A DNA stretch of 64,000 nt from a bacterium. GTDB taxonomy: Bacteria; Zixibacteria; MSB-5A5; GN15; FEB-12. The stretch is from positions 35,722-99,721 of the forward strand of contig JBDRES010000069.1 in NCBI GenBank assembly GCA_043819515.1. The letters are read 5' to 3'. The notes beneath the pieces were generated by a model that saw only the letters and a program-made list of their open reading frames with translations, had not been told where the DNA came from and did no database searches. Numbering within the stretch: position 1 is the stretch's first letter; each line of letters opens with the position of its first letter. Shown in pieces: positions 7,730 to 45,335 of this stretch. Made by a program: the position numbers and the translations under genes.

Positions 7730-10492
7730 ATGATCATAGTGAAGAAAAGAACGATTTGGTTAGTGTTGCTTTTGGGGACAGTATTGGTGTCCTCTTCGAT
7801 ACTGGCGGTATCGCCCACCAAAGAGGCGATCGAAAAATGGAAGGCCGAGGGTGTCTGGGAACAGAAGGTGGCCAACTGGAAGGCTTTCAAAGCTGCCGGC
7901 GGCTGCTCACCAGAAGAGCACACGCCTCTGGATCGGGCCAAGCGGAAAGAACGTCTGGCCTTGGGTGAGGAAGTTGTCGATACCGTCAATGTAATCGTAC
8001 TCCTGGCTGAATTCAGCGATAATCCGGCCGGCAGCCAGCCAAATCAATTCGACTCGATCCTGTTTTCCCAGGACAAGCTGAATCCGACCGGTTCCATGAC
8101 CGAATTCTACATGGAAAACTCTTACGGCACTTTCTTCATTAAGGGCGACATCTACGGTTGGTACATGATGCCTGAGCCTTACGATTACTACGTAGGCGTA
8201 GACGACGGCATGACCAACGGCAGATATGTCGTAAGTCATGCCGCTGTCCAGGCCGAGCTGGCCGGGGTTGATTTCTCCAAGTACGATAACAACCATGACG
8301 GTTGGTGCGATGGCTTGATTGTCGTTCACGCCGGGCCTGGTGCTGAGTCCGGAGCCTATGGGATATGGTCACACAAGGGCAACCTGAGTGGATCAATCGT
8401 GTATGACGGTGTAACGCTCAGCGGCTACACCATGAATCCGGAGAAACAGGGTGGCTCGTTGAGCAATATGGGCGTCTTTGCGCACGAATACGGCCATTTT
8501 ATTGGGCTGCCCGATCTCTACGATGTCGACTATTCACCGGCCTCGTCAGAGGGCGTAGGCGACTGGAGCATAATGGCCACCGGTAGTTGGAATGGCGGCG
8601 GCGCCAGACCGGCGCACTTTGATGCCTGGTGCAAACGCGATGTTGGTTTCGCCGTGCCGGTCGACATTCCGTTCAACATGGATAGCGTCGAGATTCCCTG
8701 CGTCGAATATAATCCCGTCGTTTACCAGCTCAAGAACACGGCGGCAGCCCCCAGCGAATACTGGCTGGTGGAGAATCGTCAGCAGGTTGGTTTTGATGCC
8801 GGTTTGCCTGGAAACGGCCTGCTCATCTATCATATCGATGTGGGAGCCTGGGGCAACACTGATCCCAATCGCTATATGGTGGCCGTGGAGCAGGCGGATG
8901 GCCGCAACGATCTGGCCTGGACCAATAACAACCAGGGTGATGGCGGTGATCCCTTTCCGGGTGCCAGCAATAATCGAGCTTTCAATGATCGCAGCAATCC
9001 CAGTTCCAAGGCTAATGTGTATGGCCCCAGTAATGGCGTTACCACCGCTATCGGCGTTTGGGACATCACTGATTCCGATTCCATCATGTGGGCCGATCTC
9101 GATGTGTCGTACTCACGGCCGTGGGTGGAGCTGTCCGATGATATGCCGGTTACATTTGATGATTCCGAGTATGGCGATGGTGATGGCCGCCTCGAAGCGG
9201 GGGAGACGGTCGATTTTTACTGTTGGGTGAAGAATTACATGAAGGCGGGGTACCACGCCCACCTCAGTGTTTCGTGCAATAATCCGGCGGTCAGTTTTGG
9301 ACAGAACGATGTCATGTTTGCAGAAATGATGGTCTCTCACAATGTCGGCAACGCTTCGCCCGACAGCCTGCCCATCGAGATCATCTTGGCCAACGAGTTT
9401 GATCCCACCATTGATACGCTGTGGCTGACGATTACCTCGGATGCCCTTCAAGGAGTACCCGGGACTCAGGATTTTCAGTCGTTGATCCCACTGGAGGTTG
9501 CCCTCGGTGGTCCTCAGGTTTTGTTGGTGGACGATGAAGCCAGCGCCGCCGATGACTACGATCTCGTCTATACCCGAGCTTTTTACGACTTGCGCGTGCC
9601 CTTTGAAGTGTGGTCGACCGCTGATTCCGGATCGCCAACTGCCGCAGATTTGTCTCAATACCAGATGGTGTTCTGGCACACCGGCGATGTCGAGGCGGGC
9701 GCTATCGAAGCCGGCGATGTGGCGGCCATGCGAGAATACATGGACGGTCACGGCAACCTTCTTCTTTCTACATTGGGTGGCATTCAAGACATAGTGAGTA
9801 TAGATCACGACTTCATGCGCAACTACTTCGGCGCCGAGGCTGTTGGTACGGACAGTCTCGTTCCGGGGATTTTTGGAGTGACCGGCAGTGATATCGGCCA
9901 CGGGTTGTCAGTGAGGTATGACTCTTGGGTGGCACCAATACCGTCGGATCATTTGCAGACGATTAACGGTGGTCAGGCTGCTTTCTATCAGATGGTTTCG
10001 CCTCAATTCATCGTTGGCGTTTCCTTTGCGGATTCTCTGGCGCATTCCGCGGTGCTGTTGTCGTTCCCGCTCGGGTACTTGGGAGACTACGGTGACCCAT
10101 GGAAGCCCCCAGTTTTCCTGATTGAAAGAGTGGTCGACTTTTTCGGAATGAGCAGTGGCTCGCCCACCGATGTCGGCGAAACTCAGGCCTCTGTCTTGCC
10201 GCGTGGTTTCGAACTGGGGCAAAACTATCCCAACCCGTTCAATCCGGTTACTACAATATCGTATACCATCAGACCAACATCCGGGCGGCCGCCGCAGACG
10301 ACTTTGTCCATATTCAACATGCTGGGCCAGCGGGTACGCGTTCTGGTCGACGAACCGCAGTTACCCGGCGTCTATACTGTGACCTGGAACGGCACCGCCG
10401 ATGATGGCCAAGCGGTGGCAACGGGGGTGTATTTCTATCGCCTGAGCCGCGGCGGGGATGCCACCACGCGAAAGATGGTTCTTCTGAAGTAA
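7730..10492 (+). CDS. M6 (immune inhibitor A-like) zinc metallopeptidase with T9SS C-terminal sorting domain
   Basis: Signal peptide, then HEYGHFIGLPDLYD (the HExxHxxGxxD motif of the M6 family). C-terminus LGQNYPNPFNPVTTISYT...GVYFYRLSRGGDATTRKMVLLK is paralogous to the CTD of the upstream S8 protease. Confidence 0.8.
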   Translation: MIIVKKRTIWLVLLLGTVLVSSSILAVSPTKEAIEKWKAEGVWEQKVANWKAFKAAGGCSPEEHTPLDRAKRKERLALGEEVVDTVNVIVLLAEFSDNPAGSQPNQFDSILFSQDKLNPTGSMTEFYMENSYGTFFIKGDIYGWYMMPEPYDYYVGVDDGMTNGRYVVSHAAVQAELAGVDFSKYDNNHDGWCDGLIVVHAGPGAESGAYGIWSHKGNLSGSIVYDGVTLSGYTMNPEKQGGSLSNMGVFAHEYGHFIGLPDLYDVDYSPASSEGVGDWSIMATGSWNGGGARPAHFDAWCKRDVGFAVPVDIPFNMDSVEIPCVEYNPVVYQLKNTAAAPSEYWLVENRQQVGFDAGLPGNGLLIYHIDVGAWGNTDPNRYMVAVEQADGRNDLAWTNNNQGDGGDPFPGASNNRAFNDRSNPSSKANVYGPSNGVTTAIGVWDITDSDSIMWADLDVSYSRPWVELSDDMPVTFDDSEYGDGDGRLEAGETVDFYCWVKNYMKAGYHAHLSVSCNNPAVSFGQNDVMFAEMMVSHNVGNASPDSLPIEIILANEFDPTIDTLWLTITSDALQGVPGTQDFQSLIPLEVALGGPQVLLVDDEASAADDYDLVYTRAFYDLRVPFEVWSTADSGSPTAADLSQYQMVFWHTGDVEAGAIEAGDVAAMREYMDGHGNLLLSTLGGIQDIVSIDHDFMRNYFGAEAVGTDSLVPGIFGVTGSDIGHGLSVRYDSWVAPIPSDHLQTINGGQAAFYQMVSPQFIVGVSFADSLAHSAVLLSFPLGYLGDYGDPWKPPVFLIERVVDFFGMSSGSPTDVGETQASVLPRGFELGQNYPNPFNPVTTISYTIRPTSGRPPQTTLSIFNMLGQRVRVLVDEPQLPGVYTVTWNGTADDGQAVATGVYFYRLSRGGDATTRKMVLLK

Positions 10493-20232: not shown

Positions 20233-20259
20233 CGCCCTAGCAAGTTCGTGAGGTGTGTC

Positions 20260-20472
20260 ATGTTTGGCATGGGTCCCTGGGAACTACTGGTTATATTTGT
20301 AGTGATTCTCTTGCTCTTTGGCGCCAAGAGACTGCCCGAGATTGCAAAGGGTCTGGGCAAAGGTATACGGGAGTTTAAGTCCGCCGTCAAGGACACGACC
20401 GACGAGATTAAGGGGGCGGTCGACACCGAACCTGAGTCGATGAAGCCAAAATCTCCCGACAAGGACAAGTAG
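20260..20472 (+). CDS. tatA: Sec-independent protein translocase TatA/E
   Basis: [40 protein letters not shown], which is the canonical TatA helix plus amphipathic helix. ATG 20260, preceded by GTGAGGTG. Confidence 0.8.
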
Positions 20473-33486: not shown

Positions 33487-36150
33487 TTGGTGGGGACAAC
33501 AGTGAATAGAAAATCGGCGTCACTATTAGCCCTGACAATCTTGCTGGCCCTCAGTACCGTCCAGGCTCAGTCGGTCCTGCCCAAGCCCGCGGCGGCACCC
33601 GATTCCGGGTATACCAGTAACGCCGCCACCGACGTCGCCTTGCACGGCGGCGGTATATGGATGGCCACCGATGAAGGCGCCCAGGTGACCTACGATCAGG
33701 GGCAGACCTGGCTGCGGATCGGCCAGGGCACCGGGTTGATCAGCGAAATCGTCTCGGCCATATACTCGAGCGGGACGCGGCTGTGGATGGGAACCAGTCA
33801 CTCGCAGATGTATGATGGCGGCCGATACGCCTACTCCGATGGTGTTTCCTTCAGTGATGACAACGGGACTACCTGGCATCATATCGATTTTTCCGAGAGT
33901 GGACAGAACATCGATTGGGTAAGTGGTGTCTCCCGAACCGTTTTTGACATCACCGGCCACATCGATGAGGATCAAGATGCGGAGTGGGTTGTCTTTGCGG
34001 CTTTTGCCGGCGGCTTTCTGGCATCTCGCGATGGCGGCCTCAACTGGCGACGGATTTTCCCGACCACCATCGACTCGGTTCAATTCGTTTTTGGAGGTAC
34101 GCCCTCGGAGAGGAACCGCGCCTTCTCCTGCGTGGCTGATACCTCGCGCGGCGACACGTTGTACTTGTGGACCGGGACTGCCGAGGGGATTTTCCAGTAT
34201 ATCTTTGCTACGCCGAAACAGAAACCGCATTCAAAGCACATCAATCGGATTGCCTTTTGTGACGAATGCCCCGATTCGAGTTGGGTGTTTTATGGCGGCC
34301 ACGACGGTTTCACGCGCGGGCTGACCACCGGCCGTCCGTATATCAGTCGCCTGGAAGAAGACGGCTTGCCGGGGCCGGCGATCTCGGCTCTGATTGATTT
34401 CCGCGGCCGCTTGCTGGTGGCCACCTATGATGATGCCACCGATCTGTTCACCGGCCTGGCCTGGTCGGATGATCGCGGCGAGTCGTTTCAAAGCGACGAT
34501 CATCCGGTGACGTCTTACAACGGTCGATTTGCCGGTGGTGAAGCGCTGGTCACAGATTTTGCTGCTGTTAGAGAACGGCTGTACCTGGCCGGTGGTGCTA
34601 ACGGGCTTTTTGTTTCGTCCGACTCCGGGCTGACGTGGGATGACATTCTCGTAGATTCCTCGGCCGCATCCAGTCTGCTCAACTCCGCCAACGCACTTTT
34701 TGCTGACGGCGACACGCTCCTGGTTGGTACGGACTCAGGCTTGGCCAGCCTCTTTCTTGATCCGTTGGGAGTCATCGATTCCTCCCGGTTCCATGTCTTT
34801 GGCGAATTTGATTCCAGCGCTTTCCATGTCGGCTCGACTCGCGTGATGCGGGTACGCGTGCAAAAATTCTCTGACGATGACACCGGCGAACTGGATTCTA
34901 TGGCCTACTGGACTGTCAATCAGCCGTTGACCTCGGAGGGACGCAGGATGGTGGGCAGGAACAATCCTGACTCCAGCCTCTGGAACCACTATCAATGGCG
35001 GGCTAAGAGCATTGACGTAAACTTTATTGGAGACACCGCCATTGTCATGGGTGAGGATGGCATCTGGTTCACATCCGACGGGGGCAACCCCGGAGCCAAG
35101 TTCGCCATTGAGGAGCATTCCGGGGGCAATACTGTCGATTCTTTTGGCAACGATGTCGTGACGACGATGGAAGTCATGGGTGATACCGTCGCCTTTGGAT
35201 CCAACAACGGCTTCGCAATCTCAACCAACCGGGGCGCTGATTTCGATGTGGTTCGAGTCAACACCGATCCCCTCAAGGCGGATCTGGTCATACACCATTT
35301 GGCCAGTCAGACGGCGTTCGAAGGACTCACCGGCGATTTTGTCCCGGCTCTTGATGTTCAGTATGTCGATGGTCAGCCGGCCCGCGTTTGGGCTTCCAAT
35401 CGCAGTACCGCCTACTGGCCGGACAGCAACGCCATCTCAGTGGGACAAGTGATGGAAGTGGACGCAGACGGGGAGTATGTGCCGCTGGGCTCGGCCGATT
35501 CGGTAAATGGTTATGTCTGGGTCTGGGATCGCGTCTATAACAAGACTTTCGCCTGGAATCACGCCTTCTATGGTGATTCGGTTTTTGCCGCCACCGACAG
35601 CGGCCTGGTGCTGTTGGAGCCCAACGAAACGGCGACGGTCTGGACAGCAACAGAAATACCTCTTGAAAACGAAAACGGTGAACCCTGGCTCGCGGCCGGC
35701 ACTTCTGTCTACGGCGTTGAAGTGCAACCACCGTACTTGTGGGTGGGTACGGATGATCGCACGCTGCGTCTGCGGCTGGATGACCTCGGTGATCAGACGG
35801 TCTACCAGGTCATCGATTCGACCACTCCGCCGGACGAAGTCTACGCTTTCCCAGTGCCTTATAGCCACGCTATGGATGGCGCCAGTGGTGGACTGCTCGA
35901 CTTTCACTTTGTCCTGGACCGGCCGGCCGACGTAACCATTACTGTTTACGATTTTGCTATGAACAAAGTGGCCACGGTGATCGAGAATCAACCGTTCCCG
36001 GCCGGGATTTACCCGTCGAGCGGATCGCTGCGTCCCCGTTGGAACGGTATCAATGACAAGGGCGATCAGGGGGCCGTGGGAGTTTACTATTTTAAGGTAG
36101 AGTACTCGACCGGCGAAACTTACTGGGGTAAACTGGCCCTGATCCCATAA
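33487..36150 (+). CDS. Secreted BNR/Asp-box repeat protein with T9SS/FlgD-Ig-like C-terminal domain
   Basis: Signal peptide. Repeated S-x-D-x-G-x-T-W Asp-boxes (SDDNGTTWHH, SRDGGLNWRR, SSDSGLTWDD, TSDGGNPG). C-terminal about 100 aa beta-sandwich (VTITVYDFAMNKVATV...GVYYFKVEY) resembles T9SS sorting / FlgD-Ig domains. Confidence 0.6.
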   Translation: MVGTTVNRKSASLLALTILLALSTVQAQSVLPKPAAAPDSGYTSNAATDVALHGGGIWMATDEGAQVTYDQGQTWLRIGQGTGLISEIVSAIYSSGTRLWMGTSHSQMYDGGRYAYSDGVSFSDDNGTTWHHIDFSESGQNIDWVSGVSRTVFDITGHIDEDQDAEWVVFAAFAGGFLASRDGGLNWRRIFPTTIDSVQFVFGGTPSERNRAFSCVADTSRGDTLYLWTGTAEGIFQYIFATPKQKPHSKHINRIAFCDECPDSSWVFYGGHDGFTRGLTTGRPYISRLEEDGLPGPAISALIDFRGRLLVATYDDATDLFTGLAWSDDRGESFQSDDHPVTSYNGRFAGGEALVTDFAAVRERLYLAGGANGLFVSSDSGLTWDDILVDSSAASSLLNSANALFADGDTLLVGTDSGLASLFLDPLGVIDSSRFHVFGEFDSSAFHVGSTRVMRVRVQKFSDDDTGELDSMAYWTVNQPLTSEGRRMVGRNNPDSSLWNHYQWRAKSIDVNFIGDTAIVMGEDGIWFTSDGGNPGAKFAIEEHSGGNTVDSFGNDVVTTMEVMGDTVAFGSNNGFAISTNRGADFDVVRVNTDPLKADLVIHHLASQTAFEGLTGDFVPALDVQYVDGQPARVWASNRSTAYWPDSNAISVGQVMEVDADGEYVPLGSADSVNGYVWVWDRVYNKTFAWNHAFYGDSVFAATDSGLVLLEPNETATVWTATEIPLENENGEPWLAAGTSVYGVEVQPPYLWVGTDDRTLRLRLDDLGDQTVYQVIDSTTPPDEVYAFPVPYSHAMDGASGGLLDFHFVLDRPADVTITVYDFAMNKVATVIENQPFPAGIYPSSGSLRPRWNGINDKGDQGAVGVYYFKVEYSTGETYWGKLALIP

Positions 36151-36156
36151 GAGGAG

Positions 36157-37161
36157 ATGATACGGATGCAATCTAGACAGCTTATTGCGACGGCCCTGAT
36201 CCTATTGCTGACGGCCGCTGTCTCCTCCGCGGTGGCAGGTGATGGCGACGGTGGTTATGCCGGGTCTTTTCTTCAGATGCCGATTGGAGCCCGGCCGGCC
36301 GCTATGGGCGGCGCTTACCTGGCCGTTTCCAATGACGGCGCCGGGGTGCTGTACAATCCGGCTGGCTTGACTTCCTTGCAACGCCCGATGCTGGCCACTT
36401 CTTATCGTCTGATGAAACTCGATCGCAAACTGGGTTATGCTACCGCCATGCTGCCGGCGCGTGGCAATTCCGTGATCGGTTTGCATTGGCTTTATGGCGG
36501 ATCCGGATCGGTTGAGCGACGCAATTACGACGGCGATGCTCTGGGTGACCAGATCAGCATGAACTCTCATGCTTTTTCGATCATATTTGCCAAACGCTTT
36601 GAGAGTGCCTTTTCGGCCGGAGTGAAGATGAACTATCTGCACTCGCAATTTGCCGAAATGTCGGCCTATTCGGTCGGCATCGATTTTGGCGTTATGTTCT
36701 ATCTCGACCACCTCTTTGGACGCGAGAAAGTCGGGTTACTGCCGATTGATGATGCGCAAGTGGGAATTACCCTCAATAACCTGGACGCCACCTACAACTG
36801 GAATAACGAAGCGTACGTTCACAAACACATCAGCGGCAGCGGCGTAGGCACCGAGCAAGCGGATGAAATCCCGATGGAATTTGGGCTGGGCTTGTCGGGG
36901 CGTTTGATGCAACGCAAGCTGTTGCTGGCGACCGACCTGATCAAGAACGCCAAGCAGGGAGCGGAACTTCACGCCGGGGCCGAGTATTTTGTGAAACCGG
37001 AGTTTGCCTTCCGGGGTGGTTTTTCCGACGGCCGCCTGACCGCGGGGACCGGCTACGTGTTTAGAATCGGCAGCCAGACTCTTGCGATCGATTACGCCTT
37101 CTCGACCGACAAAGCCGATGAAGGCTCCGAGCACATATTCTCTTTTGACCTCCTCTTCTGA
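36157..37161 (+). CDS. PorV/FadL-like outer-membrane beta-barrel protein (T9SS-associated family)
   Basis: Signal peptide, then the conserved N-terminal motif GARPAAMGGAYLAVSNDGAGVLYNPAGL shared by PorV/PorQ/FadL-type barrels. Alternating amphipathic strands and a C-terminal aromatic residue. Confidence 0.5.
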   Translation: MIRMQSRQLIATALILLLTAAVSSAVAGDGDGGYAGSFLQMPIGARPAAMGGAYLAVSNDGAGVLYNPAGLTSLQRPMLATSYRLMKLDRKLGYATAMLPARGNSVIGLHWLYGGSGSVERRNYDGDALGDQISMNSHAFSIIFAKRFESAFSAGVKMNYLHSQFAEMSAYSVGIDFGVMFYLDHLFGREKVGLLPIDDAQVGITLNNLDATYNWNNEAYVHKHISGSGVGTEQADEIPMEFGLGLSGRLMQRKLLLATDLIKNAKQGAELHAGAEYFVKPEFAFRGGFSDGRLTAGTGYVFRIGSQTLAIDYAFSTDKADEGSEHIFSFDLLF

Positions 37162-37170
37162 GGTGAGACG

Positions 37171-38079
37171 ATGAAGGTACTAAAATTCAGTCTCTTGGTA
37201 GCCGGCTTGGTTGTCACCATGAATGCGTCCGGAGTCGCTTCCGATGCCGGTCTGGCTCTGCTTACCAACGAGTATTCCGCCCGACCGGCGGGGATGGGTG
37301 GCGCGGCAGTTTCGATTCTGTCCGATCCCAACGCCATTTGGTACAACCCGGCTGCGGCGGTCGGACTGGACACGTTTACGGCTTCATTCGGCCATACGGT
37401 TTTCTGGGAGAATATCCGCTTCGAGTCCGGTTGCTTTGGAATCGGCTTGTCGCCCAGATTCTACCTGCATGGTGGCATTCGCATGGCCACCATCGACGAT
37501 ATCGAGCAACGGGGTGAAGTACCGACAACCCAACCGGAAGCGTTGTTTGGATCGCACGATATCTCCGGCAAACTAGGTTTGGCTTATCGGATGAGCGACG
37601 ACGTCGCTGTAGGGGCGGCCATTGGATGGATGTTTGAGGAAATCGAATCCTGGCGCGGGTCGGAGTTCAACGTCGATGTGGGTGTGAATGTCACGCCACG
37701 TATCGAGGGCCTCACCCTGGGTGCCGCCGTCACCGGCCTGGGCGGCGACATGGCTATCACCAAAGAAGGGACTATCGGTTCGCGCGAAATCCCCTTGCCG
37801 ACAACCTATCGATTCGGCGGTTCATATACTTATCGCTGGCTGCGCGGCGCGGCCGATTTGGTTTATCTCGATGACCAGGCCCACGCCCACCTGGGAGTCG
37901 AGGGCACTGTGTCAAAAGAACTCAATCTTCGCGCCGGCTACATGTCCGGCTATGATACTCGCAACATCACGGCCGGAGCGTCATTCGCATATCGCAACGT
38001 GCGCGTCGACTATGCCTTCCTGCCGTATTCTGATAATCTCGGAACAAGTCACCTGTTTAACGTAACGTTTAGTCTTTAG
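37171..38079 (+). CDS. PorQ/PorV-like outer-membrane beta-barrel protein (paralog of upstream gene)
   Basis: Signal peptide plus SARPAGMGGAAVSILSDPNAIWYNPAA motif. Ends ..NVTFSL. Tandem paralog of the upstream barrel. Confidence 0.5.
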   Translation: MKVLKFSLLVAGLVVTMNASGVASDAGLALLTNEYSARPAGMGGAAVSILSDPNAIWYNPAAAVGLDTFTASFGHTVFWENIRFESGCFGIGLSPRFYLHGGIRMATIDDIEQRGEVPTTQPEALFGSHDISGKLGLAYRMSDDVAVGAAIGWMFEEIESWRGSEFNVDVGVNVTPRIEGLTLGAAVTGLGGDMAITKEGTIGSREIPLPTTYRFGGSYTYRWLRGAADLVYLDDQAHAHLGVEGTVSKELNLRAGYMSGYDTRNITAGASFAYRNVRVDYAFLPYSDNLGTSHLFNVTFSL

Positions 38080-38098
38080 AGAGGAAGAGACACACACG

Positions 38099-39217
38099 AT
38101 GGCCAAGTATCGCATTGCCTGGATGCCTGGTGATGGCGTTGGTAACGACGTCATGGAGGCAGCAAAAATCGTCCTGGACAAACTTGCCCTCGACGCTGAC
38201 TATCCCCATGCCGATATCGGTTGGGAATTCTGGAAAACCGAAGCCAACCCGCTGCCGGACCGGACCGTCAAGCTGCTTAACGAAGTTGACTGCTCGCTTT
38301 TTGGAGCCATCACTTCAATGCCCAAAGAAGAGTGCGAAAAGGCGCTCATTCCCGCATTGCAGGGCAAGGGGCATGTTTATGCCTCGCCGATCGTGCGGTT
38401 GCGCCAGGAGTTTAATCTCCGAACCAACCTGCGGCCGTGCAAAGCCTACCCCGGCAACCCGCTCAATTACAAAGAGGGCATCGACCTGATGGTCTTCCGC
38501 GAGAACACCGAGGACCTTTATGTCGGCGTCGAGTTCCACCCTCTGCCCGATGAAGTCCGCGACGTGCTGAAGAAGCATCACAAAAAGATGGCGCGCTTTG
38601 ACGGTACCGCCGGCAAAGACATCGCCGTCTCGCTGCGCATTAACACCCGTCTGGGCTGCCGCAACATCATCACCGACGCCTTCGAGTACGCTAAAAAGAC
38701 CGGCCGCAAGAGTGTGACCGTGGTCGAGAAACCGAATGTCGTGCGCGAGACCTCCGGGCTGATGGTGCGCACGGCTCGCGAAGTTGCCAAGAACTATCCG
38801 GGCATCGAACTCTGGGAGACCAACATCGACGCCATGTGCATGTGGCTGATCAAGAACCCGCTCGACTATTCGGTTCTGGTGACAACCAACATGTTCGGTG
38901 ATATCGTCAGTGACCTTTGCGCGCAGCTAGTCGGTGGTCTCGGTTTTGCCGCTTCGGGCAACATCAGCGACAAGCTGGCGGTGTTCGAGCCGACCCACGG
39001 GTCCGCGCCGAAATACGCCGGTCAGTACAAAGTCAACCCGATGGCTATGCTGTTGACGACGCGGATGATGCTTGAATGGCTGGGCGAGAACGATATGGCC
39101 GAGCGACTCGAAAACGCTATCGCGGCCGTCATCAAAGAAGGCAAGGTCCGCACCTACGACATGGGCGGTACTTCGACCACTCTCGAAGTCGGCCAGGCGG
39201 TCGCAGACAAGCTGTAA
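38099..39217 (+). CDS. Isocitrate/isopropylmalate dehydrogenase family protein (NAD(P)-dependent beta-decarboxylating dehydrogenase)
   Basis: Family signature NMFGDIVSDLCAQLVGGLGFAASGNI and a Rossmann-like N-terminus IAWMPGDGVGNDV. 372 aa. Confidence 0.75.
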   Translation: MAKYRIAWMPGDGVGNDVMEAAKIVLDKLALDADYPHADIGWEFWKTEANPLPDRTVKLLNEVDCSLFGAITSMPKEECEKALIPALQGKGHVYASPIVRLRQEFNLRTNLRPCKAYPGNPLNYKEGIDLMVFRENTEDLYVGVEFHPLPDEVRDVLKKHHKKMARFDGTAGKDIAVSLRINTRLGCRNIITDAFEYAKKTGRKSVTVVEKPNVVRETSGLMVRTAREVAKNYPGIELWETNIDAMCMWLIKNPLDYSVLVTTNMFGDIVSDLCAQLVGGLGFAASGNISDKLAVFEPTHGSAPKYAGQYKVNPMAMLLTTRMMLEWLGENDMAERLENAIAAVIKEGKVRTYDMGGTSTTLEVGQAVADKL

Positions 39218-39225
39218 TCTGAATC

Positions 39226-39260
39226 GTCATTCCTGCGAAAGCAGGAATCCAATCTTGAAG
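39226..39260 (-). repeat. REP-like palindromic hairpin repeat, copy A1 (reverse orientation)
   Basis: TCATTCCTGCGAAAGCAGGAATCC AATCTTGAAGG. This is the reverse complement of the GGATTCCYGCTTTCGCRGGAATGA unit seen at 41638, 41790 and 42023. Confidence 0.7.
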
Positions 39261-39289
39261 GCAGGCCTCGAAAGGGGCCTGCTTTTTTT
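39260..39289 (+). terminator. Rho-independent terminator after dehydrogenase gene
   Basis: GCAGGCC-TCGAAAGG-GGCCTGC stem-loop followed by T7. Confidence 0.8.
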
Positions 39290-39367
39290 GTGATTGACTA
39301 AGGTGACGGTGTCTGCTATGAATAGCATCGGAGGTATAACAGAACTTAAGCAGGACAGGGTTGCGTC

Positions 39368-40045
39368 ATGGTGGACAAGATACCATTCAATGCCTATGAC
39401 TTTTTCGGTTACTTGGCGCCCGGTGCTATTGCGTGTGTCAGCCTCGACTATGTGCTGGGTCTGGGTATAGTGCTCGTGAAGGATCCGGGTGCGTATTTCA
39501 CGGTGCTTATCGTTATGGCGTTCTATTTCGTGGGGCATGTGGTGGCTGCTGGATCTGCTCTGGTGTATGGCAGGGTAGTCGCACGCATTGTGTACGGTGA
39601 CTACTATGAATACCTGTTTTCTGATGATCGCATGACAATGTGGCGACGACTGACCGCCTGCGCTCCGTTGCCTGCGGAGATCCAAACCGCAGTTTTGAAA
39701 CAGGCGCGTGGTGTTGCAATAGAGAAGGCTGGTCAAGCCCTATATCAATTTGCCTGCAGCGTGGCGCGGCGATCCCCTGAATACGGCCCGAGACTGAGAG
39801 TGTTTCTGAACCTGCTTGGCTTTTCCAGGAATGTGTCAGCGGCATTTGCGGTAGCAGGGATTGCTTTCGCATTGTCGTCGTATGGGGGTGGTGGCAGCAC
39901 ATCGATCGGATGGATGACAGCTGCAGCGCTGTTTGCATCAGCCGTGATGTTGGTGCGTTTCATGCGATTTTATCGTCTCTATGGAGTCGAAGTGTTCTCA
40001 GCGTTGGCCTACCACGATGATCGGAAGGATGACGCAGCTTGCTAA
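39368..40045 (+). CDS. Hypothetical 4-TM membrane protein (low-GC insert, gene 1)
   Basis: 225 aa with four hydrophobic helices and a GGGGS stretch. Local GC is clearly lower than the flanks. Stop overlaps the next gene start. Confidence 0.5.
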   Translation: MVDKIPFNAYDFFGYLAPGAIACVSLDYVLGLGIVLVKDPGAYFTVLIVMAFYFVGHVVAAGSALVYGRVVARIVYGDYYEYLFSDDRMTMWRRLTACAPLPAEIQTAVLKQARGVAIEKAGQALYQFACSVARRSPEYGPRLRVFLNLLGFSRNVSAAFAVAGIAFALSSYGGGGSTSIGWMTAAALFASAVMLVRFMRFYRLYGVEVFSALAYHDDRKDDAAC

Positions 40046-40833
40046 TACAGATCTTCAACGTGGGGCATGGATTTTGTGCGTTGGTTCGTGCGGACAACGG
40101 CAACAGCTTGTTAGTCGACTGCGGCTCGGGTGGACCAAACGACTTCAAGCCATCCAGGTACCTACCATCGATAGGCGTTACAAGGCTTCAAAAACTGGTG
40201 ATCTCCAATTACGATGAAGACCATATGTCAGATTTGGCGGAGTTGCGGCGCAGCGTGCACATAGAAATACTAGCCAAAAACTGCAGCATTAATCCGGACC
40301 AGTTGGAAAAGCTGAAAGCCGAATCAGGTCCTATCGGCAGTGGCATGAGCTCGCTCTTGGATATGCTCCACATGTATACGAGCCCTGTGCTGGCGGAGCC
40401 TGACTTCGCTGGATGTGGCTTTCGATTCTACCACAATCAGTATCCAGGATTCCAGGACACCAATAATCTGTCGCTCGTCACTTTTGTGAAGTACGGCACT
40501 CACCAAATCGTCTTTCCTGGAGACCTTGAGACCGCTGGGTGGGATAAGCTGTTAGAAAGATCTGACTTCAGGGCCGACTTGGCGTGCACGACGGTGTTCG
40601 TTGCATCCCACCATGGTAGGAGATCCGGGTATTGCCCTGAAGTCTTCGGCTACTGCAGCCCCGGGATTATAATCGTTTCAGATTCCGGAATCCAATATGA
40701 CACCCAAGTGGTCCCATATGATGCGCATGCGCGCGGGATATCCCTTGGTTCGCAAAGGAGGTACGTCTATACAACGCGCAAAGACGGAGATATTACTCTA
40801 CGATACTTTCCTGACGGTCGATGGGAGATATAG
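40039..40833 (+). CDS. Metallo-beta-lactamase-fold hydrolase with degenerate metal-binding motif (low-GC insert, gene 2)
   Basis: Beta-strand-rich N-terminus LIQIFNVGHGFCALVRADNGNSLLVDCGSG. The canonical HxHxDH motif is replaced by SNYDEDHMSDL, and a later VASHHGRRSGY resembles the ComEC-type MBL SHHG motif. TTG start overlaps the upstream stop by 7 nt. Confidence 0.6.
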   Translation: MLIQIFNVGHGFCALVRADNGNSLLVDCGSGGPNDFKPSRYLPSIGVTRLQKLVISNYDEDHMSDLAELRRSVHIEILAKNCSINPDQLEKLKAESGPIGSGMSSLLDMLHMYTSPVLAEPDFAGCGFRFYHNQYPGFQDTNNLSLVTFVKYGTHQIVFPGDLETAGWDKLLERSDFRADLACTTVFVASHHGRRSGYCPEVFGYCSPGIIIVSDSGIQYDTQVVPYDAHARGISLGSQRRYVYTTRKDGDITLRYFPDGRWEI

Positions 40834-40876
40834 TCCAATGTTCGGTGATTGCCCCTGTCTGCTTGAGCCTCACCCC

Positions 40877-41482
40877 CTACCCCCTCGGCCTCTTTAGCCT
40901 TTCCTCAATGATGAAGCGCGCGCCGCGGACGGCCAGGCCGCGGTGGGAGACACGGTTCTTTTCTTCGAGGGTCATCTCCGAAAACCGTTTGTCGGCGTTG
41001 GGATAATAAAACACCGGATCGTAACCGAACCCCTGTCGGCCGACCAGGTCCTCGGCGATGTAGCCCTCAGCCTTGCCCTCGACCGTGTCGGTCGTGCCGT
41101 CGCCCCAGTCGATACAGATCACACAGCGGAAGCGTGCCGTGCGCTTCTCGGGCGGGATACCTTTGAGATCACTCAGCAGTTTGCGGTTGTTGTCTTCGTA
41201 AGTGCAGCCGGGTCCGGCGTAGCGCGATGAGAATACGCCCGGCGCGCCGTCGAGAGCGTCGACCTCCAGCCCGCTGTCGTCGGCCAGCGCCGCGCAGCCG
41301 CAAAAGGCCGCTATCTCATGCGCCTTGATGAAGGCGTTCTGTTCGAGAGTGGTGCCGGTTTCGTCCGGGTCGGGAAAAGAATCAAAGTCGGCGCTAGTCA
41401 GTATCTCGACCGGCAGGTCGGCCAGGACCTCTTTGATTTCCCGGATCTTGTCTTTGTTATTCGTCGCGAGTACGATTCTCAT
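40877..41482 (-). CDS. rdgB: Non-canonical purine NTP pyrophosphatase (RdgB/Ham1 family)
   Basis: MRIVLATNNKDKIREIK...FGYDPVFYY family motifs. Start chosen at M12 (MRIVLATNN). The alternative start is 41515. Confidence 0.85.
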   Translation of the reverse strand: MRIVLATNNKDKIREIKEVLADLPVEILTSADFDSFPDPDETGTTLEQNAFIKAHEIAAFCGCAALADDSGLEVDALDGAPGVFSSRYAGPGCTYEDNNRKLLSDLKGIPPEKRTARFRCVICIDWGDGTTDTVEGKAEGYIAEDLVGRQGFGYDPVFYYPNADKRFSEMTLEEKNRVSHRGLAVRGARFIIEERLKRPRG

Positions 41483-41637
41483 AGATGGCCCTTGTCTCTG
41501 TTTGTTGAACCGCAAGATATGCGTGGCCGGATCGGGAGCAAGTGAGATATTATGGTGTCACCCCGGCGTAGGCCGGGGTCCAGACATTGGTGGATGCGCA
41601 TTGCTCACGGATATATCTCGGCGCGGCCAAGTTGCCT

Positions 41638-41668
41638 GGATTCCCGCCTCCGCGGGAATGACGAATGT
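41638..41668 (+). repeat. REP-like palindromic hairpin repeat, copy B1
   Basis: GGATTCCCGCCTCCGCGGGAATGACGAATGT. Confidence 0.75.
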
Positions 41669-41742
41669 TGAAGGGCCTGAAAGTTGCGGATACGCTGAAC
41701 CGAGTTTGTGGGTGACAGACTCAGACGGTAGTATGGCGGTTG

Positions 41743-41778
41743 TCATCCCTGCGGAAGCAGGGATCCAATCTTGAGGCC
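41743..41778 (-). repeat. REP-like palindromic hairpin repeat, copy A2 (reverse orientation)
   Basis: TCATCCCTGCGGAAGCAGGGATCC AATCTTGAGGCC. The flank AATCTTGARG is shared with A1. Confidence 0.7.
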
Positions 41779-41789
41779 GAACGAAGAAT

Positions 41790-41820
41790 AGATTCCCGCT
41801 TTCGCGGGAATGACGAATGT
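41790..41820 (+). repeat. REP-like palindromic hairpin repeat, copy B2
   Basis: AGATTCCCGCTTTCGCGGGAATGACGAATGT, with its last 29 nt (GATTCCCGCTTTCGCGGGAATGACGAATGT onward) identical to those of copy B3. Confidence 0.8.
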
Positions 41821-41835
41821 AAGGGAACCTTCAGT

Positions 41836-41912
41836 CTCTGTAGGGCGAAGCCGTCTTCGGACCCGCCGGACTCGCAATGGCAGGTCTGAAGACAGATCTG
41901 CCCTACACAAAC
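41836..41912. repeat. Long imperfect inverted repeat (about 22-nt arms, 17/22 complementary) within the REP-rich intergenic region
   Basis: TGTAGGGCGAAGCCGTCTTCGG ... CTGAAGACAGATCTGCCCTACA. Confidence 0.5.
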
Positions 41913-42022
41913 CGCCTCGTGATAGTGGGGAGAAACGGCGGATCTCACTTCGTCGAGATCCGAGAAAGACTAAGTCTGTCAGGTCCCTAAGGGGATCTGA
42001 CCTACAAATCCACAAGAAGAAC

Positions 42023-42053
42023 GGATTCCCGCTTTCGCGGGAATGACGAATGT
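42023..42053 (+). repeat. REP-like palindromic hairpin repeat, copy B3
   Basis: GGATTCCCGCTTTCGCGGGAATGACGAATGT. Confidence 0.8.
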
Positions 42054-42064
42054 AGAGAAGGCTC

Positions 42065-42916
42065 TCAATACCTACTAATGTCCACCCGGGTGATGCCGTC
42101 GACGATTTGGCCGAGAAAGCGTGTGGCGACGGTTGAAAATCTCTCCGGCACATCGCTGACGAAGAACTTATGTTCGCCCATCGGCGCACGACCGCCGCCG
42201 TTGGCTTGGGTCGTGGCGGGGGAGAGGAGGCCGGCTTCGACGAGCTTCTTGCGCGCGAAGCGGGCGGTTTCCTCGCCACTGTCGATAAGCGTGACCTTGT
42301 CGCCCATAACCTCGGCGATGATGTGCTTTAGCAGCGGGTAGTGCGTGCAGCCCAGCACCAGCGTGTCGACCTCGACATCGAGCATGGTTTGCAGATACTC
42401 CCTGGCGATCAGCCGCGTAGCATCTCTATCGATGTAGCCTTCTTCCGCCAGCGGCACGAACAGGGGACAGGCCAACGAGAAGATTTTTGATTTGGCATCC
42501 AACGAGTGAATTATGCGGGCGTAGGCATTGGATCCGATGGTGGCGTTGGTGCCGATGACGCCGATGCGTCCATTATCTGTCTTTGCGACGGCTGCCACGG
42601 CGCCGGGTTCGATGACGCCCACCAGTTCGATAGGATAGTCACCCTTGATTTCATCCAGTGCTGCTGCCGAGGCCGAGTTGCAGGCGCAGATGATATACTT
42701 GACCTTATGTTCAATCAAGAACGCCACGTCCTGACGCGTGAACTGGGTGATGATTTCCTTCGAACGCCCGCCATAGGGCGTGCGGCCCTGATCGCCGAAG
42801 TATATGACGTCTTCGTGAGGCAGGATTTTGAAAATCTCCCGGGCCACCGTCAAACCGCCGACACCGGAATCAAAAATCCCGATGGGAGCGCTACTCTTGA
42901 CATCATCTTTGGTCAT
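42065..42916 (-). CDS. murI: Glutamate racemase
   Basis: IGIFDSGVGGLTV, YFGDQGRTPYG, ACNSASA and GCTHYP motifs, including both catalytic Cys regions. Confidence 0.9.
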   Translation of the reverse strand: MTKDDVKSSAPIGIFDSGVGGLTVAREIFKILPHEDVIYFGDQGRTPYGGRSKEIITQFTRQDVAFLIEHKVKYIICACNSASAAALDEIKGDYPIELVGVIEPGAVAAVAKTDNGRIGVIGTNATIGSNAYARIIHSLDAKSKIFSLACPLFVPLAEEGYIDRDATRLIAREYLQTMLDVEVDTLVLGCTHYPLLKHIIAEVMGDKVTLIDSGEETARFARKKLVEAGLLSPATTQANGGGRAPMGEHKFFVSDVPERFSTVATRFLGQIVDGITRVDISRY

Positions 42917-42933
42917 ATTGTATCTGCCGGTGA

Positions 42934-44448
42934 TCAGTTGTTCTCATACTTTTCCTTAAAGCGCTTGATGGCCTTGTAGAGCGATTCGGCCACCTGCTTT
43001 TGGAAACTGTCGGACTTAAGGAGTTTTTCTTCGTTCTTGTTCGAGATAAATCCGGTCTCGATCAGCACCGACGGCGTGAAAACTTGGTTGAGCACAAAGA
43101 ACCCGGCCTGATCAACACCCCGTGCCGGTATCTTGAGCTTGCGATTCAGTTCCTTGGCGACCATCATGGCAAAATCGTGCGATTCCTCCTGGAATTCGGT
43201 CATGATCATATCATTGAGAATGGTCAGGATCGGATCGAGTTCCAGATCGTCGGCAGTGTTGGCATCATCATCGGTTTCTTCAGATGTCCCTTCCTCACGC
43301 AGGAAGAATGAATTCTCAAACTGGGCGACGGCTCGGGCGGAGTCGTTTTTCGCCGGCGCCAGGAAGAAGACATTCCACCCGCTAACCCGCTTCTTGGGAG
43401 AGGCGTTGGCATGGATGGATATGAACAGATCGGCTCCGGCGTTGTTGGCGATTTCGGCCCGCTTCTCAAGCGAGATATAGGTGTCCCGATCGCGGGTGGT
43501 AACAATCCTGAATTGCTTGTCGGTACGCATCAGCTTGGCCAGCTCGCGCGAGATGGCCAGGACAACATCCTTCTCGCGCGTACCCCCCTGACCGATAGCA
43601 CCGTAGTCGCTGCCGCCGTGGCCCGGGTCGATCACGATAACGTCGATCTTGTCATCCGGTCCGACAATCTTGGGAGCCGTATCCTCCGGATTGAGATTGA
43701 AGTCGGCGTCGGCTATAGAGATTTGGATACGCGGCGGGTCGTAGACAAGTTTGTGTTGCCAGGTGCCGACGTTCTTTCGCAAGCGCATCGATATCTGTCC
43801 ATTGCCGGCTGACTGATGGGCCGTAAGCTTGTACATGTAGCGCCGGTCTTTGCGAGCCAGAATCTGGCTGGTGTTGATGCGAGCGTCGGTGATGGAAATA
43901 TTGAGCCAGTTGCCCTCGGTCAGAAAGACATCGTACCCCAGGGCGCCGGTCAGGAGTACTTCAATCAGCAAACCGTTGGCCTTGCCGTTGACGGCCAGGT
44001 CCAGGACATTGAAGTACTCGGAGTCGATGCGCAACACGTCGAGCATTTTGTCATACATAATGGTCTGACGTTGGACGCCATTCAGAAACGGAATGAACGT
44101 CTGGGCCGGGACAAAAAGTTGGCCGTCACGCAACTGGGCCGGGAAAGTCTGATTATAGACCTTGTCGTTGACTTTGAAGAAGGGGGATCCAAGAACAAAG
44201 TCAAAACGACAGGCGTCGCCAACGTAGCTGATCTTGTGGCCCATCAGTTCCCAGTCCAGGCGGCCACCCAGTACCTCGGCTATCTCCGAGAGTGACACGT
44301 AGGTGATTTCATGGTGCTGAAATGAGGACAGCTTCGATGTCCCGCCCGCCGTCACGATCTCGGTGGCCTCGGAGATCGATATGCCGGCGCCCAGCAGCAA
44401 AGCCAGGATAAGCGCGGCCAGGCGATATTGTCCGTCGAATCTCATCAC
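42934..44448 (-). CDS. N-acetylmuramoyl-L-alanine amidase (Amidase_3, AmiC-like with N-terminal AMIN-like domain)
   Basis: Signal peptide, an N-terminal beta-rich domain, then the VIDPGHGGSDYGAIG catalytic Zn motif and SIHANA. Confidence 0.8.
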   Translation of the reverse strand: MMRFDGQYRLAALILALLLGAGISISEATEIVTAGGTSKLSSFQHHEITYVSLSEIAEVLGGRLDWELMGHKISYVGDACRFDFVLGSPFFKVNDKVYNQTFPAQLRDGQLFVPAQTFIPFLNGVQRQTIMYDKMLDVLRIDSEYFNVLDLAVNGKANGLLIEVLLTGALGYDVFLTEGNWLNISITDARINTSQILARKDRRYMYKLTAHQSAGNGQISMRLRKNVGTWQHKLVYDPPRIQISIADADFNLNPEDTAPKIVGPDDKIDVIVIDPGHGGSDYGAIGQGGTREKDVVLAISRELAKLMRTDKQFRIVTTRDRDTYISLEKRAEIANNAGADLFISIHANASPKKRVSGWNVFFLAPAKNDSARAVAQFENSFFLREEGTSEETDDDANTADDLELDPILTILNDMIMTEFQEESHDFAMMVAKELNRKLKIPARGVDQAGFFVLNQVFTPSVLIETGFISNKNEEKLLKSDSFQKQVAESLYKAIKRFKEKYENN

Positions 44449-44909
44449 CGGTCTTTCTTGAGAGCCTGTTTCATGCGGCGCTCGGCGTCAGCTTTAGCAA
44501 TAGCCTGGCGCTTGTCATATTTCTTACGTCCGATGGCCAGGGCCAGTTCGATCTTGGCCAGCTTACCTTTGAAATAGATGGTCAGAGGAATCAGTGTCAT
44601 GCCGCGTTGTTCGGTCTGGACATACAGTTTGCCGATTTCTCGTTTGTGCAGCAGCAGGCGACGTGGCCGGAGGGGATCGAGCGCTTCGGTCGTGGCCATG
44701 CCGTAGGGAGAAATATGCAGATTTTTGAGAATCACCTGGCCGTCAAAAACCACGGCATGGGCGTCGGAGAGGTTCACCTTGCCGTCCCGCAAAGACTTGA
44801 CCTCGGCCCCCTTGAGTTCGATCCCGGCCTCAAAGGTCTTTTCAATATGAAAGTCGCGCCGAGCCTTGCGGTTGCGAACCACCACCTTGATGTCATCGGA
44901 TTCAGCCAT
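44445..44909 (-). CDS. smpB: SsrA-binding protein SmpB
   Basis: VVRNRKARRDFHIEKTFEAGIELKGAEVKSLR...YDKR C-terminal tail. Start chosen at MAESDD. The alternative start is 44945. Confidence 0.85.
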   Translation of the reverse strand: MAESDDIKVVVRNRKARRDFHIEKTFEAGIELKGAEVKSLRDGKVNLSDAHAVVFDGQVILKNLHISPYGMATTEALDPLRPRRLLLHKREIGKLYVQTEQRGMTLIPLTIYFKGKLAKIELALAIGRKKYDKRQAIAKADAERRMKQALKKDR

Positions 44910-45335
44910 AGCGGCAACGATAGGTCCCAAAGCCCCGGCAATCAAACAAAAATCGGAGTCAAGGGTCCGATCTGACGAAGTTCTATGCAGACTCCAGGCC
45001 GGACCACGGGCGAGATATTGCCCTATGTGTGCTATGTCCGAGATCCGTTAAGTAATTTATTGCCAGCCGGTTGCCAGGACAAGATTGGTCCTTCGGACAA
45101 GAAAGACCTTCGGGAAATAGTTGATCGTACTCGATGAACTGCCCCTCAGGGCTTGGTTTCGGCTGACAGGTCCGATAGCCGCGGCCTATCGGGGGGGAGC
45201 ATAAGATCAACGGACCATAGGAGATAACAGCCGCCTAACGGACATAAGCTCGGCTTGGCTGCAACCGCGGCTGTTACCTAAAGAAAGTCACCCCAAGTGC
45301 CGAAGTATAATGTAGCTATAGGGATTTAGTAGCCT

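Follow-up and report, generated by a model that had tools for sequence, protein, structure and literature searches.

The rdgB region of the 64-kb stretch of DNA analysed here (the window), from the MAG of an uncultured member of the Zixibacteria, is crowded with short palindromic repeats, which raises the question of what these repeats are and how they came to separate two genes of one operon. In the window, the operon smpB-amidase-murI-rdgB is interrupted between murI and rdgB by a gap of 582 bp (41483-42064, taking the ATG at 41482 as the start of rdgB), and not 550 bp as initially annotated. The gap was correctly described as gene-free: its short ORFs have no protein-family match and one of them merely translates a hairpin. 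The features of the region are listed below, with mismatches counted against the Neisseria NTS consensus.

39225..39252, + strand: copy 1, CGTC ATTCCTGC GAAA GCAGGAAT CCA; 3 mismatches to NTS
39257..39293, + strand: Iso_dh terminator, 13-bp stem plus T-run, directly after copy 1; conserved in the relative L001
39368..40833, + strand: two-gene cargo, membrane ORF (39368-40045) and MBL-fold ORF (40039-40833); PADLOC PDC-M48 A/B
40877..41482, - strand: rdgB (Ham1 family), conserved gene between two variable slots
41556..41583, + strand: copy 2, TGTC ACCCCGGC GTAG GCCGGGGT CCA; divergent stem, fits the published SRM pattern
41636..41663, - strand: copy 3, CGTC ATTCCCGC GGAG GCGGGAAT CCAG; 1 mismatch to NTS
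41741-41768, + strand: copy 4, TGTC ATCCCTGC GGAA GCAGGGAT CCA; half of an inverted doublet
41788-41815, - strand: copy 5, CGTC ATTCCCGC GAAA GCGGGAAT CTA; 1 mismatch to NTS, other half of the doublet
41840..41906, no single strand: GTAG REP inverted pair, an imperfect unit at 41840-41867(+) and GTAG GGCAGATCTG TCTT CAGACCTGCC at 41879-41906(-)
41978..42005, - strand: GTAG REP, GTAG GTCAGATCCC CTTA GGGACCTGAC; related units lie at gene ends in Zixibacteria relatives
42021..42048, - strand: copy 6, CGTC ATTCCCGC GAAA GCGGGAAT CCG; 1 mismatch to NTS, with a weakly T-rich tail after it
42065..42916, - strand: murI (Asp/Glu racemase), upstream gene of the interrupted junction

Sequence and fold of the hairpins

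The pattern GGATTCCYGC-N4-GCRGGAATGA, with up to three mismatches, recovers in the window all five copies of the initial annotation, as 24-nt matches at 39227-39250(-), 41638-41661(+), 41743-41766(-), 41790-41813(+) and 42023-42046(+). Only 0.02 matches are expected by chance, and five were reached in 0 of 100 shuffles. The initial set was incomplete, as it missed a sixth, divergent copy at 41556-41583(+), now copy 2 in coordinate order. Beyond these six copies at two sites, no further ones were found in the rest of the window. The frame is common to all six: a [C/T]GTC tag (CGTC in four copies, TGTC in two), a stem of 8 bp, a loop of 4 nt and a tail that reads CCA in four copies and deviates slightly from it in the other two (CTA and CCG). 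The loop is thus as first described, while the stem, put at 8-9 bp, never reaches 9 bp; it is perfectly paired in each of the six copies, beginning with AT in five and with AC in one. Four stem variants occur (ATTCCCGC three times, then ATTCCTGC, ATCCCTGC and ACCCCGGC), every one with its exact complement, which corroborates the compensatory changes reported previously. Each unit also folds as single-stranded DNA, at -7.8 to -12.7 kcal/mol (z = -3.3 to -4.2), and the murI-rdgB gap as a whole folds with z = -6.0.

The sequences shared outside the hairpins do exist, but they mark two subfamilies and not, as had been supposed, opposite sides of a single unit. Copies 3, 5 and 6 have ACATT before their CGTC tag, and copies 1 and 4 have the tail CCAATCTTGA after them. 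Copies 4 and 5 form an inverted doublet (41741..41815) with the tags pointing outward and the stems 27 nt apart, and the same layout was found again in unrelated bacteria. Since orientations are mixed and start-to-start spacings irregular (80, 105, 47 and 233 bp), a CRISPR array was rejected, as it had been from the outset. A known riboswitch or sRNA was also discarded: against Rfam, neither the entire window, scanned at the gathering threshold, nor 39100-42200, scanned permissively, gave a relevant match. Two further hairpins of the gap (41879-41906 and 41978-42005) are GTAG-tagged and represent a superfamily distinct from the CGTC hairpins.

Family assignment and the level at which the stem is constrained

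REPs of CGTC family 1 (CGTC-1) are defined by an unpaired CGTC tag, with TGTC and CCTC accepted as variants, an 8-bp stem with complementary A-T residues at its first and second positions, a 4-nt loop and a CCA tail, and have been equated with the dRS3 repeat of Neisseria (Di Nocera, De Gregorio & Rocco 2013, BMC Genomics 14:522; PMC3733652). The window hairpins display this tag, stem/loop and tail. Judged by their sequence, the six hairpins are CGTC-1 elements, the same as dRS3, whose oriented 28-nt form is called NTS and, more generally, the Ssn-related motif (SRM). The REP/BIME-type class proposed initially agrees with this architecture; for the alternative of a MITE remnant, no evidence was found. 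When at most one mismatch in 28 is allowed to the NTS consensus CGTCATTCCCGCGMAVGCGGGAATCYRG, the criterion used in PMC11893778 itself, copies 3, 5 and 6 pass, and the other three, with altered stems and 3, 7 and 8 mismatches, fail, in which they depart from dRS3/NTS. Copies 3, 5 and 6 also hold the exact dRS3 core (ATTCCC-N8-GGGAAT). The broader SRM pattern, HGTCWYN(0-2)YYVSBRHN(0-5)WNVSBRGN(0-2)RNCYNB (PMC11893778), finds three true copies in the window, and 0.38 +/- 0.63 matches in dinucleotide shuffles. One unrelated match to this pattern lies at 20256.

The setting of the hairpins resembles that of CGTC-1 REPs as well: they are intergenic, lie just 3' of ORFs and between co-directional or convergent genes, form inverted dimers and occasional clusters, and have no adjoining transposase. 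On the other hand, PMC3733652 names five phyla with CGTC repeats, and Zixibacteria are not one of them. In addition, one stem starts with AC, and in the window the copies form a cluster interspersed with GTAG REPs, a situation that is rare for CGTC elements, with exceptions in Neisseria and Wolbachia (PMC3733652). With dRS3/NTS they share the oriented, conserved 5' tag, the intergenic location and the clustering beside variable genes. The palindromic units in both orientations, separated by short spacers within one intergenic operon region, recall E. coli BIMEs and Neisseria NIMEs. However, NIMEs consist of repeated RS units of 50-150 bp bounded by dRS3, whereas the window's inter-hairpin segments do not recur: they have no match in about 250 loci compared, where only the hairpins and the doublet of copies 4 and 5 are found again. 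Unlike BIMEs and NIMEs, the window also mixes two tag superfamilies, CGTC and GTAG.

The family is widely dispersed among other genomes, and a local duplication, the alternative named in the initial annotation, was rejected: besides its presence in Zixibacteria relatives, the exact motif occurs in at least 120 viral contigs and, together with the ACATT flank, in at least 120 genome contigs. Pseudomonadota, Chloroflexota, Gemmatimonadota, Nitrospirota, Acidobacteriota, Bacteroidota, Planctomycetota and others are represented among the genome contigs listed. A tail-specific metagenome scan with the pattern CCTGC-N4-GCAGGRATCCAATCTTGA gave 0 matches. Covariation was scored at a stem position left free in the motif search, and 345 of the 354 independent matches are paired there (C-G 313, T-A 32, C·A 5, T·G 4), which upholds the earlier view that structure is under selection. 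Since there is no excess of G·T among the unpaired variants, a constraint acting at the DNA rather than the RNA level would fit these sequences better.

For E. coli REP/BIME elements, RNA-level effects on expression have been proposed, and the window hairpins could likewise work chiefly through RNA, by stabilising 3' ends or by attenuating or terminating transcription, and be under selection for the expression of Iso_dh, murI and rdgB. Their position lends itself to such a role: copies 1 and 6 begin 8 nt past the Iso_dh stop codon and 16 nt past that of murI, with the tagged strand in mRNA sense in both cases, the gap lies inside the co-directional murI->rdgB unit, and REPs are mostly found downstream of ORFs (PMC3733652). 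In addition, a terminator search of the murI strand gave copies 5 and 6 weak scores. Nevertheless, we consider a primarily RNA-level role unlikely. The terminator reported initially beside copy 1 is indeed there (39257-39286 plus the T-run), so that a canonical terminator directly follows this copy, and relatives have the terminator without the hairpin. Orientations being mixed, only some of the gap copies would present the same RNA, and the unpaired variants lack the G·U bias of an RNA stem. The near-identity across phyla, which includes the unpaired tag and flank, exceeds what such a stem needs, SsnA, the nuclease that targets NTS, is inactive on RNA (PMC11893778), and in nine relatives a murI-rdgB junction of only 2-32 bp suffices.

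The gap also holds GTAG REPs (41879-41906 and 41978-42005), a type linked to RAYTs, and the doublet of copies 4 and 5 is REPIN-like. The hairpins could accordingly be seen as REPs/REPINs copied by an IS200/IS605-like tyrosine transposase, the partner suggested in the initial annotation. Short tagged hairpins, recurrent inverted doublets and intergenic spread are indeed common to both systems, but we find this origin extremely improbable. The six hairpins are tagged CGTC/TGTC and not GTAG, and a tyrosine-transposase gene flanked by CGTC repeats was found in no species (PMC3733652). The window ORFs contain no Y1_Tnp domain, and neither a RAYT nor any other transposase, recombinase or integrase is encoded in the 64 kb. 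The genes adjoining such hairpins in the sampled loci are instead GIY-YIG genes, and the documented partner of the family belongs to this other superfamily, being the GIY-YIG ssDNA nuclease Ssn.

Junctions and variable slots around rdgB in relatives

Nine Zixibacteria relatives have a murI-rdgB spacing of only 2-32 bp, against the 582-bp hairpin mosaic of the window. Among Zixibacteria relatives, CGTC-1 hairpins are present at the murI-rdgB junction (L246, L258), between amidase and murI (L256) or at the 3' end of rdgB (L258). The conserved gene cluster is thus the same, but the junction that bears hairpins changes from one of these Zixibacteria to another, which points to an arrival of the family by independent insertions. 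For the L256 doublet, compared at about 70% divergence, no target-site duplication could be seen.

The contents of the two slots beside rdgB vary from one relative to another and are mostly candidate defence genes; the defence-like cargo turning over there includes PDC-M48, PDC-S50, AbiJ, PD-(D/E)xK and DUF5677. This difference between relatives supports the insertion hotspot proposed initially, as do the breaks in homology with L001, the closest relative, which lie at the stop codon of Iso_dh, at copy 2 and a short way past copy 6. In the window, the slot between Iso_dh and rdgB holds a candidate defence system matching PDC-M48 (B, 1.6e-71; A, 1.8e-4), which is absent from L001, L246 and L248, where other genes fill the slot. 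It is therefore synteny, and not composition, that identifies as variable cargo what had been called a low-GC insert, its GC content being only slightly lower (0.50-0.54 vs 0.55-0.62). The PDC-M48 genes are part of the context of the repeats and lie outside the repeat family. No relics of the cargo of relatives (DUF5677, AbiJ or other genes) were found in the gap.

Such a context could suggest that a site-specific recombinase or an IS110/Piv-type transposase uses the hairpins as landing pads and so drives the cargo turnover around rdgB. Besides the changing genes of both slots, the homology breaks at copy 2 and past copy 6 would suit landing pads, and dRS3 is a documented recombinase target of a Neisseria filamentous prophage (as cited in PMC11893778). 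Yet this possibility appears highly unlikely, as neither the window nor its cargo encodes an enzyme of this kind, and PDC-M48 has a hairpin at one end but none at the other, in the 43 bp that separate it from the rdgB stop. Moreover, relatives that bear cargo often lack CGTC-1 hairpins (L001, L248), and the variable block in the gap holds no gene.

The Ssn nuclease and the proposed origin of the mosaic

In Neisseria, NTS is the ssDNA target of SsnA, a GIY-YIG nuclease of ~94 aa (Nat Commun 2025, 16:2388; PMC11893778). Once single-stranded, the tagged strand folds to a hairpin, which Ssn binds, cutting this strand only, a few nt 5' of the CGTC tag; SsnA is inactive on dsDNA, and its activity is abolished when the stem sequence is changed, even if the hairpin is kept (PMC11893778). 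The enzyme thereby acts against transforming ssDNA that enters the cell, and segments flanked by NTS are integrated less (PMC11893778). This cleavage and the role in transformation are known from Neisseria.

Ssn genes encode single-domain GIY-YIG proteins (cd10448) and are typically flanked by the motif, in an NTS-ssn-NTS layout (PMC11893778). As with dRS3/NTS, small GIY-YIG genes adjoin identical hairpins in other sampled genomes: a GIY-YIG protein of ~95 aa (Pfam, 1.3e-16), a candidate Ssn, is encoded in six motif-bearing loci. A loose regex found a GIY-YIG gene in L154. In four of the six loci, a perfect hairpin lies 24-160 bp from the gene, and in L114 hairpins stand on both sides of it, as in the published layout. 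Y6, Y17 and E64, the residues mutated in PMC11893778, are invariant in the recovered proteins.

In this respect the window differs from dRS3/NTS, as it has no ssn gene: none was detected there by regex, tblastn, a 5-sequence profile or Pfam on ORFs of up to 600 aa, nor in 527 kb of related Zixibacteria loci. A profile search of the gap, the window and the Zixibacteria loci for an ssn remnant returned only matches with E above 1. NCBIfam has no specific model for the nuclease, and PDB, searched by sequence, gave no Ssn entry, only UPF0213 relatives. Since a search of a 5.8-billion-protein set with the Ssn profile placed no Zixibacteria among the best 120 of at least 8000 matches, a cognate nuclease in the organism of the window is hypothetical. 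If a cognate Ssn exists elsewhere in the genome, copies 3, 5 and 6, with ACATT before the CGTC tag, would be its likeliest substrates. By analogy with SsnA, which loses its activity when the stem sequence changes, copies 1, 2 and 4 may be inactive for Ssn or serve another partner.

Taken as a whole, the hairpins are best explained as CGTC-1/dRS3/NTS/SRM elements that spread into and accumulated at these junctions, a reading that we hold to be probable. No dedicated transposase has been found for the CGTC family (PMC3733652). The window copies would derive from CGTC-1 elements that spread, both as single units and as an inverted doublet, into intergenic DNA near the 3' ends of genes, where they would have accumulated with GTAG-type REPs into a BIME/NIME-like mosaic. 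This mosaic would now split a normally compact murI-rdgB junction, beside two slots of mostly defence-like cargo turnover. If transcripts are affected at all, for instance by pausing or by stabilisation of 3' ends after Iso_dh and murI, this would be secondary. It is also conceivable, but unlikely, that such mosaics are more than passive selfish DNA and delimit exchangeable cassettes: an Ssn-type nuclease or another partner would cut the inverted hairpins as ssDNA and thereby decide which strands, incoming or replicating, recombine at the rdgB slots, and hence how defence genes turn over. In a related scenario, the genome lacks Ssn altogether and the hairpins are maintained by a different, undescribed partner.

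Since the repeat cluster falls into a defined family whose biochemical partner is known, there is no reason to regard it as a new element or RNA. The assignment to CGTC-1/dRS3 adds an occurrence of dRS3/NTS/SRM hairpins in Zixibacteria, a phylum absent from the texts of PMC3733652 and PMC11893778, and provides a clean natural example of CGTC and GTAG REPs swelling a 2-32-bp operon junction beside two variable slots. Furthermore, if the lineage has a cognate Ssn, copies 3, 5 and 6 with their ACATT-CGTC leader would be candidate substrates for a new Ssn specificity, which could be of interest for ssDNA tools.

Palindromic repeats of the murI-rdgB gap

Gene calling arranges smpB, the amidase gene, murI and rdgB in this order on the minus strand and leaves a gene-free gap of 582 bp between murI and rdgB, where the initial annotation had described a 550-bp segment. 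The Iso_dh protein of the neighbouring gene is 100% identical to a protein of an NCBI MAG, and those of its close relatives that bear a name are mostly assigned to Zixibacteria or GN15. The remaining junctions of this unit are very tight, with only 17 bp between the amidase gene and murI. The terminator previously noticed beside hairpin copy 1 is likewise present.

Features of the region (coordinates, strand, description; copies 1-6 are oriented by their CGTC/TGTC tag)
38099-39217, +, Iso_dh gene
39225-39252, +, hairpin copy 1
39257-39286, terminator, followed by a T-run
39368-40833, +, two overlapping ORFs in the Iso_dh-rdgB interval
40877-41482, -, rdgB/Ham1 gene
41556-41583, +, hairpin copy 2
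41636-41663, -, hairpin copy 3
41741-41768, +, hairpin copy 4
41788-41815, -, hairpin copy 5 (inverted doublet with copy 4)
41840-41867, +, imperfect inverted partner of the GTAG REPs
41879-41906, -, GTAG-tagged REP, 10-bp stem
41978-42005, -, GTAG-tagged REP, 10-bp stem
42021-42048, -, hairpin copy 6
42065-42916, -, murI gene, then the amidase gene and smpB (-)

Searching the whole 64 kb with the pattern GGATTCCYGC-N4-GCRGGAATGA (up to three mismatches) recovered the five copies reported earlier, at 39227-39250 (-), 41638-41661 (+), 41743-41766 (-), 41790-41813 (+) and 42023-42046 (+), where 0.02 matches are expected by chance; the rest of the 64 kb holds no further match. A relaxed scan with the frame GTCA-[7]-[4]-[7 complement]-TCC added the sixth copy, 41556-41583, which has a different stem. 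Once oriented alike, all six copies consist of [C/T]GTC, an 8-bp stem, a 4-nt loop, the complement and a CCA-like tail. The 4-nt loop of the initial annotation is thus retained, whereas its 8-9 bp stem has to be narrowed to 8 bp in every copy. Folded as ssDNA, single copies reach -7.8 to -12.7 kcal/mol (z-scores -3.3 to -4.2) and the whole gap gives z = -6.0.

Prokaryotic REPs form two superfamilies, GTAG-tagged and CGTC-tagged (PMC3733652). Members of the CGTC-1 family within the latter have A-T residues at the start of an 8-bp stem, a loop of 4 nt and CCA as their tail, with TGTC accepted as a tag variant (PMC3733652), and each defining point (tag, 8-bp stem, 4-nt loop, tail) is found in the copies of the window. 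CGTC-1 has been equated with dRS3 of Neisseria, and no dedicated transposase was found for it (PMC3733652); dRS3 was later extended to an oriented 28-nt form, the NTS, CGTCATTCCCGCGMAVGCGGGAATCYRG, and to a degenerate Ssn-related motif, SRM (PMC11893778). Copies 3, 5 and 6 each differ from the NTS by one mismatch, and copies 2, 5 and 6 match the SRM, for which 0.38 matches are expected by chance. An SRM match devoid of a palindromic stem, at 20256-20287 (+), illustrates this chance rate of 0.38 per 64 kb.

Since it holds both GTAG REPs and CGTC-1 hairpins, the gap is a mosaic of two REP superfamilies; its two clean GTAG REPs carry an A/C mismatch at the same stem position. Identification of the hairpins as CGTC-1/dRS3/NTS-type REPs, which together with GTAG REPs make up a BIME-like mosaic, is well supported, and the REP/BIME-type class first proposed was correct. 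The RAYT partner proposed with it does not suit the CGTC-1 family, but may suit the GTAG units of the same gap. We also observed a 21-nt inverted repeat, 81% complementary, between the conserved rdgB leader (41528-41548) and the gap (41942-41962), 393 nt apart; its gap arm also contributes to an 8-bp hairpin formed locally (41939-41962).

Covariation and distribution of the hairpins

The core motif occurs in at least 120 viral contigs, and a 29-mer with the extra CATT flank, as in copies 3, 5 and 6, has exact matches in at least 120 genome contigs. Among the matches listed, its hosts belong to Pseudomonadota, Chloroflexota, Gemmatimonadota, Nitrospirota, Acidobacteriota, Bacteroidota/Ignavibacteriales/Kapaibacterium, Planctomycetota, Hydrogenedentales, Binatia and Thermodesulfobacteriota. 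The identical 29-nt pattern, including its unpaired CATT-CGTC leader, is seen in about 10 phyla (loci L126-L245) and in many viral-classed contigs (L006-L125), again among the matches listed. That even unpaired flank bases are so conserved implies either that a shared protein partner constrains them strongly or that the element often spreads horizontally.

One stem position, unconstrained on either arm by the search patterns, was counted in 354 hits with unique context: C-G 313, T-A 32, C·A 5 and T·G 4. Unlinked arms would yield about 4 T-A pairs; the compensatory changes initially pointed out are therefore real at the level of the family. Alignment of the copy 4+5 doublet, with 99.3% of cells paired and five cells changed on both sides, agrees with this picture. 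Among the non-paired hits G·T is not in excess (4 T·G against 5 C·A). An RNA stem fits this less well than does a DNA hairpin under Watson-Crick constraint, or the amplification of subfamilies that were already palindromic. RNA-level effects on the Iso_dh and murI transcripts are possible as secondary consequences but are unnecessary for explaining the data.

Variable junctions in Zixibacteria relatives

In nine loci of Zixibacteria relatives, murI and rdgB lie 2-32 bp apart, and in the others the junction holds the elements or genes listed below.

Content of the murI-rdgB junction in fetched loci
L246, L258: CGTC-1 hairpins
L256, L259, L260, L261: GTAG REPs
L001, L253, L268, L272: DUF5677 gene
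L261: DUF3800 gene
L248: 272-aa gene and AbiJ-like gene

The hairpin of L258 is identical to copy 1 in stem, loop and tail. CGTC-1 hairpins also occupy other junctions of the cluster, namely amidase-murI (L256) and the rdgB 3' end (L258); this placement at different junctions in different relatives argues for independent insertions and not for one inherited ancestral copy. The DUF5677 genes (284-346 aa) are co-oriented, at 10322-11209 in L001, 2989-4029 in L253, 3006-4001 in L268 and 3143-3997 in L272; L001, the closest relative, thus has such a gene where the window has the hairpin mosaic. DNA homology between the two comprises 36001-39217, 40895-41563 and 42069-44956, its breakpoints being the Iso_dh stop, copy 2 and a site immediately beyond copy 6. 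No relics of the relatives' cargo genes, DUF5677 included, are detectable in the gap, and its segments between hairpins have no match in about 250 loci compared, in which the sole recurring parts are the hairpins and the doublet of copies 4 and 5.

The Iso_dh-rdgB slot is as variable as the murI-rdgB junction. In the window, its two ORFs (39368-40833) correspond to PDC-M48, a PADLOC candidate anti-phage system, the B subunit, which has an MBL fold, matching over its full length (1.6e-71) and the A subunit weakly (1.8e-4). Since the relatives hold other defence candidates there, namely PDC-S50/SLFN_AlbA_2 (L001), a PD-(D/E)xK/DUF6602 protein (L246) and PDC-S02/Mrr_N (L003), the slot looks like a small defence-gene hotspot.

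Related GTAG REPs (GTAG GTCAGGACC..., GTAG GTCGAAACC CCTGT...) lie at gene ends in L001, L003, L004, L256 and L258-L261. A third palindrome family, CGTCA[TC]CCTGAGC-N3-4-TCGAAGG[AG]TG, is found in L001 (8059-8087 and ~10263-10290), L246 (3984-4010) and L258 (~3790-3815); its gene-end sites, after Iso_dh and upstream of rdgB, are those of the CGTC-1 hairpins in the window. In L246, one such palindrome is nested in the loop of a GTAG REP that spans 3972-4019, and L248 shows a similar nesting, which suggests insertion into hairpin loops.

Ssn nuclease as a putative partner

SsnA, a 94-aa single-domain GIY-YIG protein, binds the NTS and cleaves it only as ssDNA and only on the tagged strand, at a distance of a few nucleotides on the 5' side; SRMs lie near 71% of ssn homologues, and Neisseria transformation is poorer with NTS-flanked DNA (PMC11893778). 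Of ~240 motif-bearing loci, 6 encode a GIY-YIG protein about 95 aa long (Pfam 1.3e-16); in four of these 6 a perfect CGTC-1 hairpin lies 24-160 bp away. In L114, hairpins flank the gene on both sides with tags outward, matching the published NTS-ssn-NTS layout (PMC11893778). Furthermore, the alignment of the recovered proteins shows no variation at Y6, Y17 and E64, which had been mutated in that study (PMC11893778); for these proteins NCBIfam has no specific model and PDB only UPF0213 relatives.

Within the window, comparison of the 42 remaining ORFs (up to 600 aa) with Pfam revealed no GIY-YIG protein, Y1 transposase/RAYT, other transposase or integrase. A five-sequence Ssn profile found nothing in the six-frame window translation, nor in related Zixibacteria loci totalling 527 kb. 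When an Ssn profile was run against a large protein collection, the best 120 of at least 8000 matches included no Zixibacteria. Following the published mechanism (PMC11893778), the ssDNA hairpin would be recognised and then cut by an Ssn nuclease; we infer that this could apply in the present organism, given the sequence identity and the gene-hairpin association in other genomes.

The hairpin family is already described and very widespread. New here are only its occurrence in Zixibacteria and the local picture of a REP invasion beside two variable slots whose genes are mostly defence-like.
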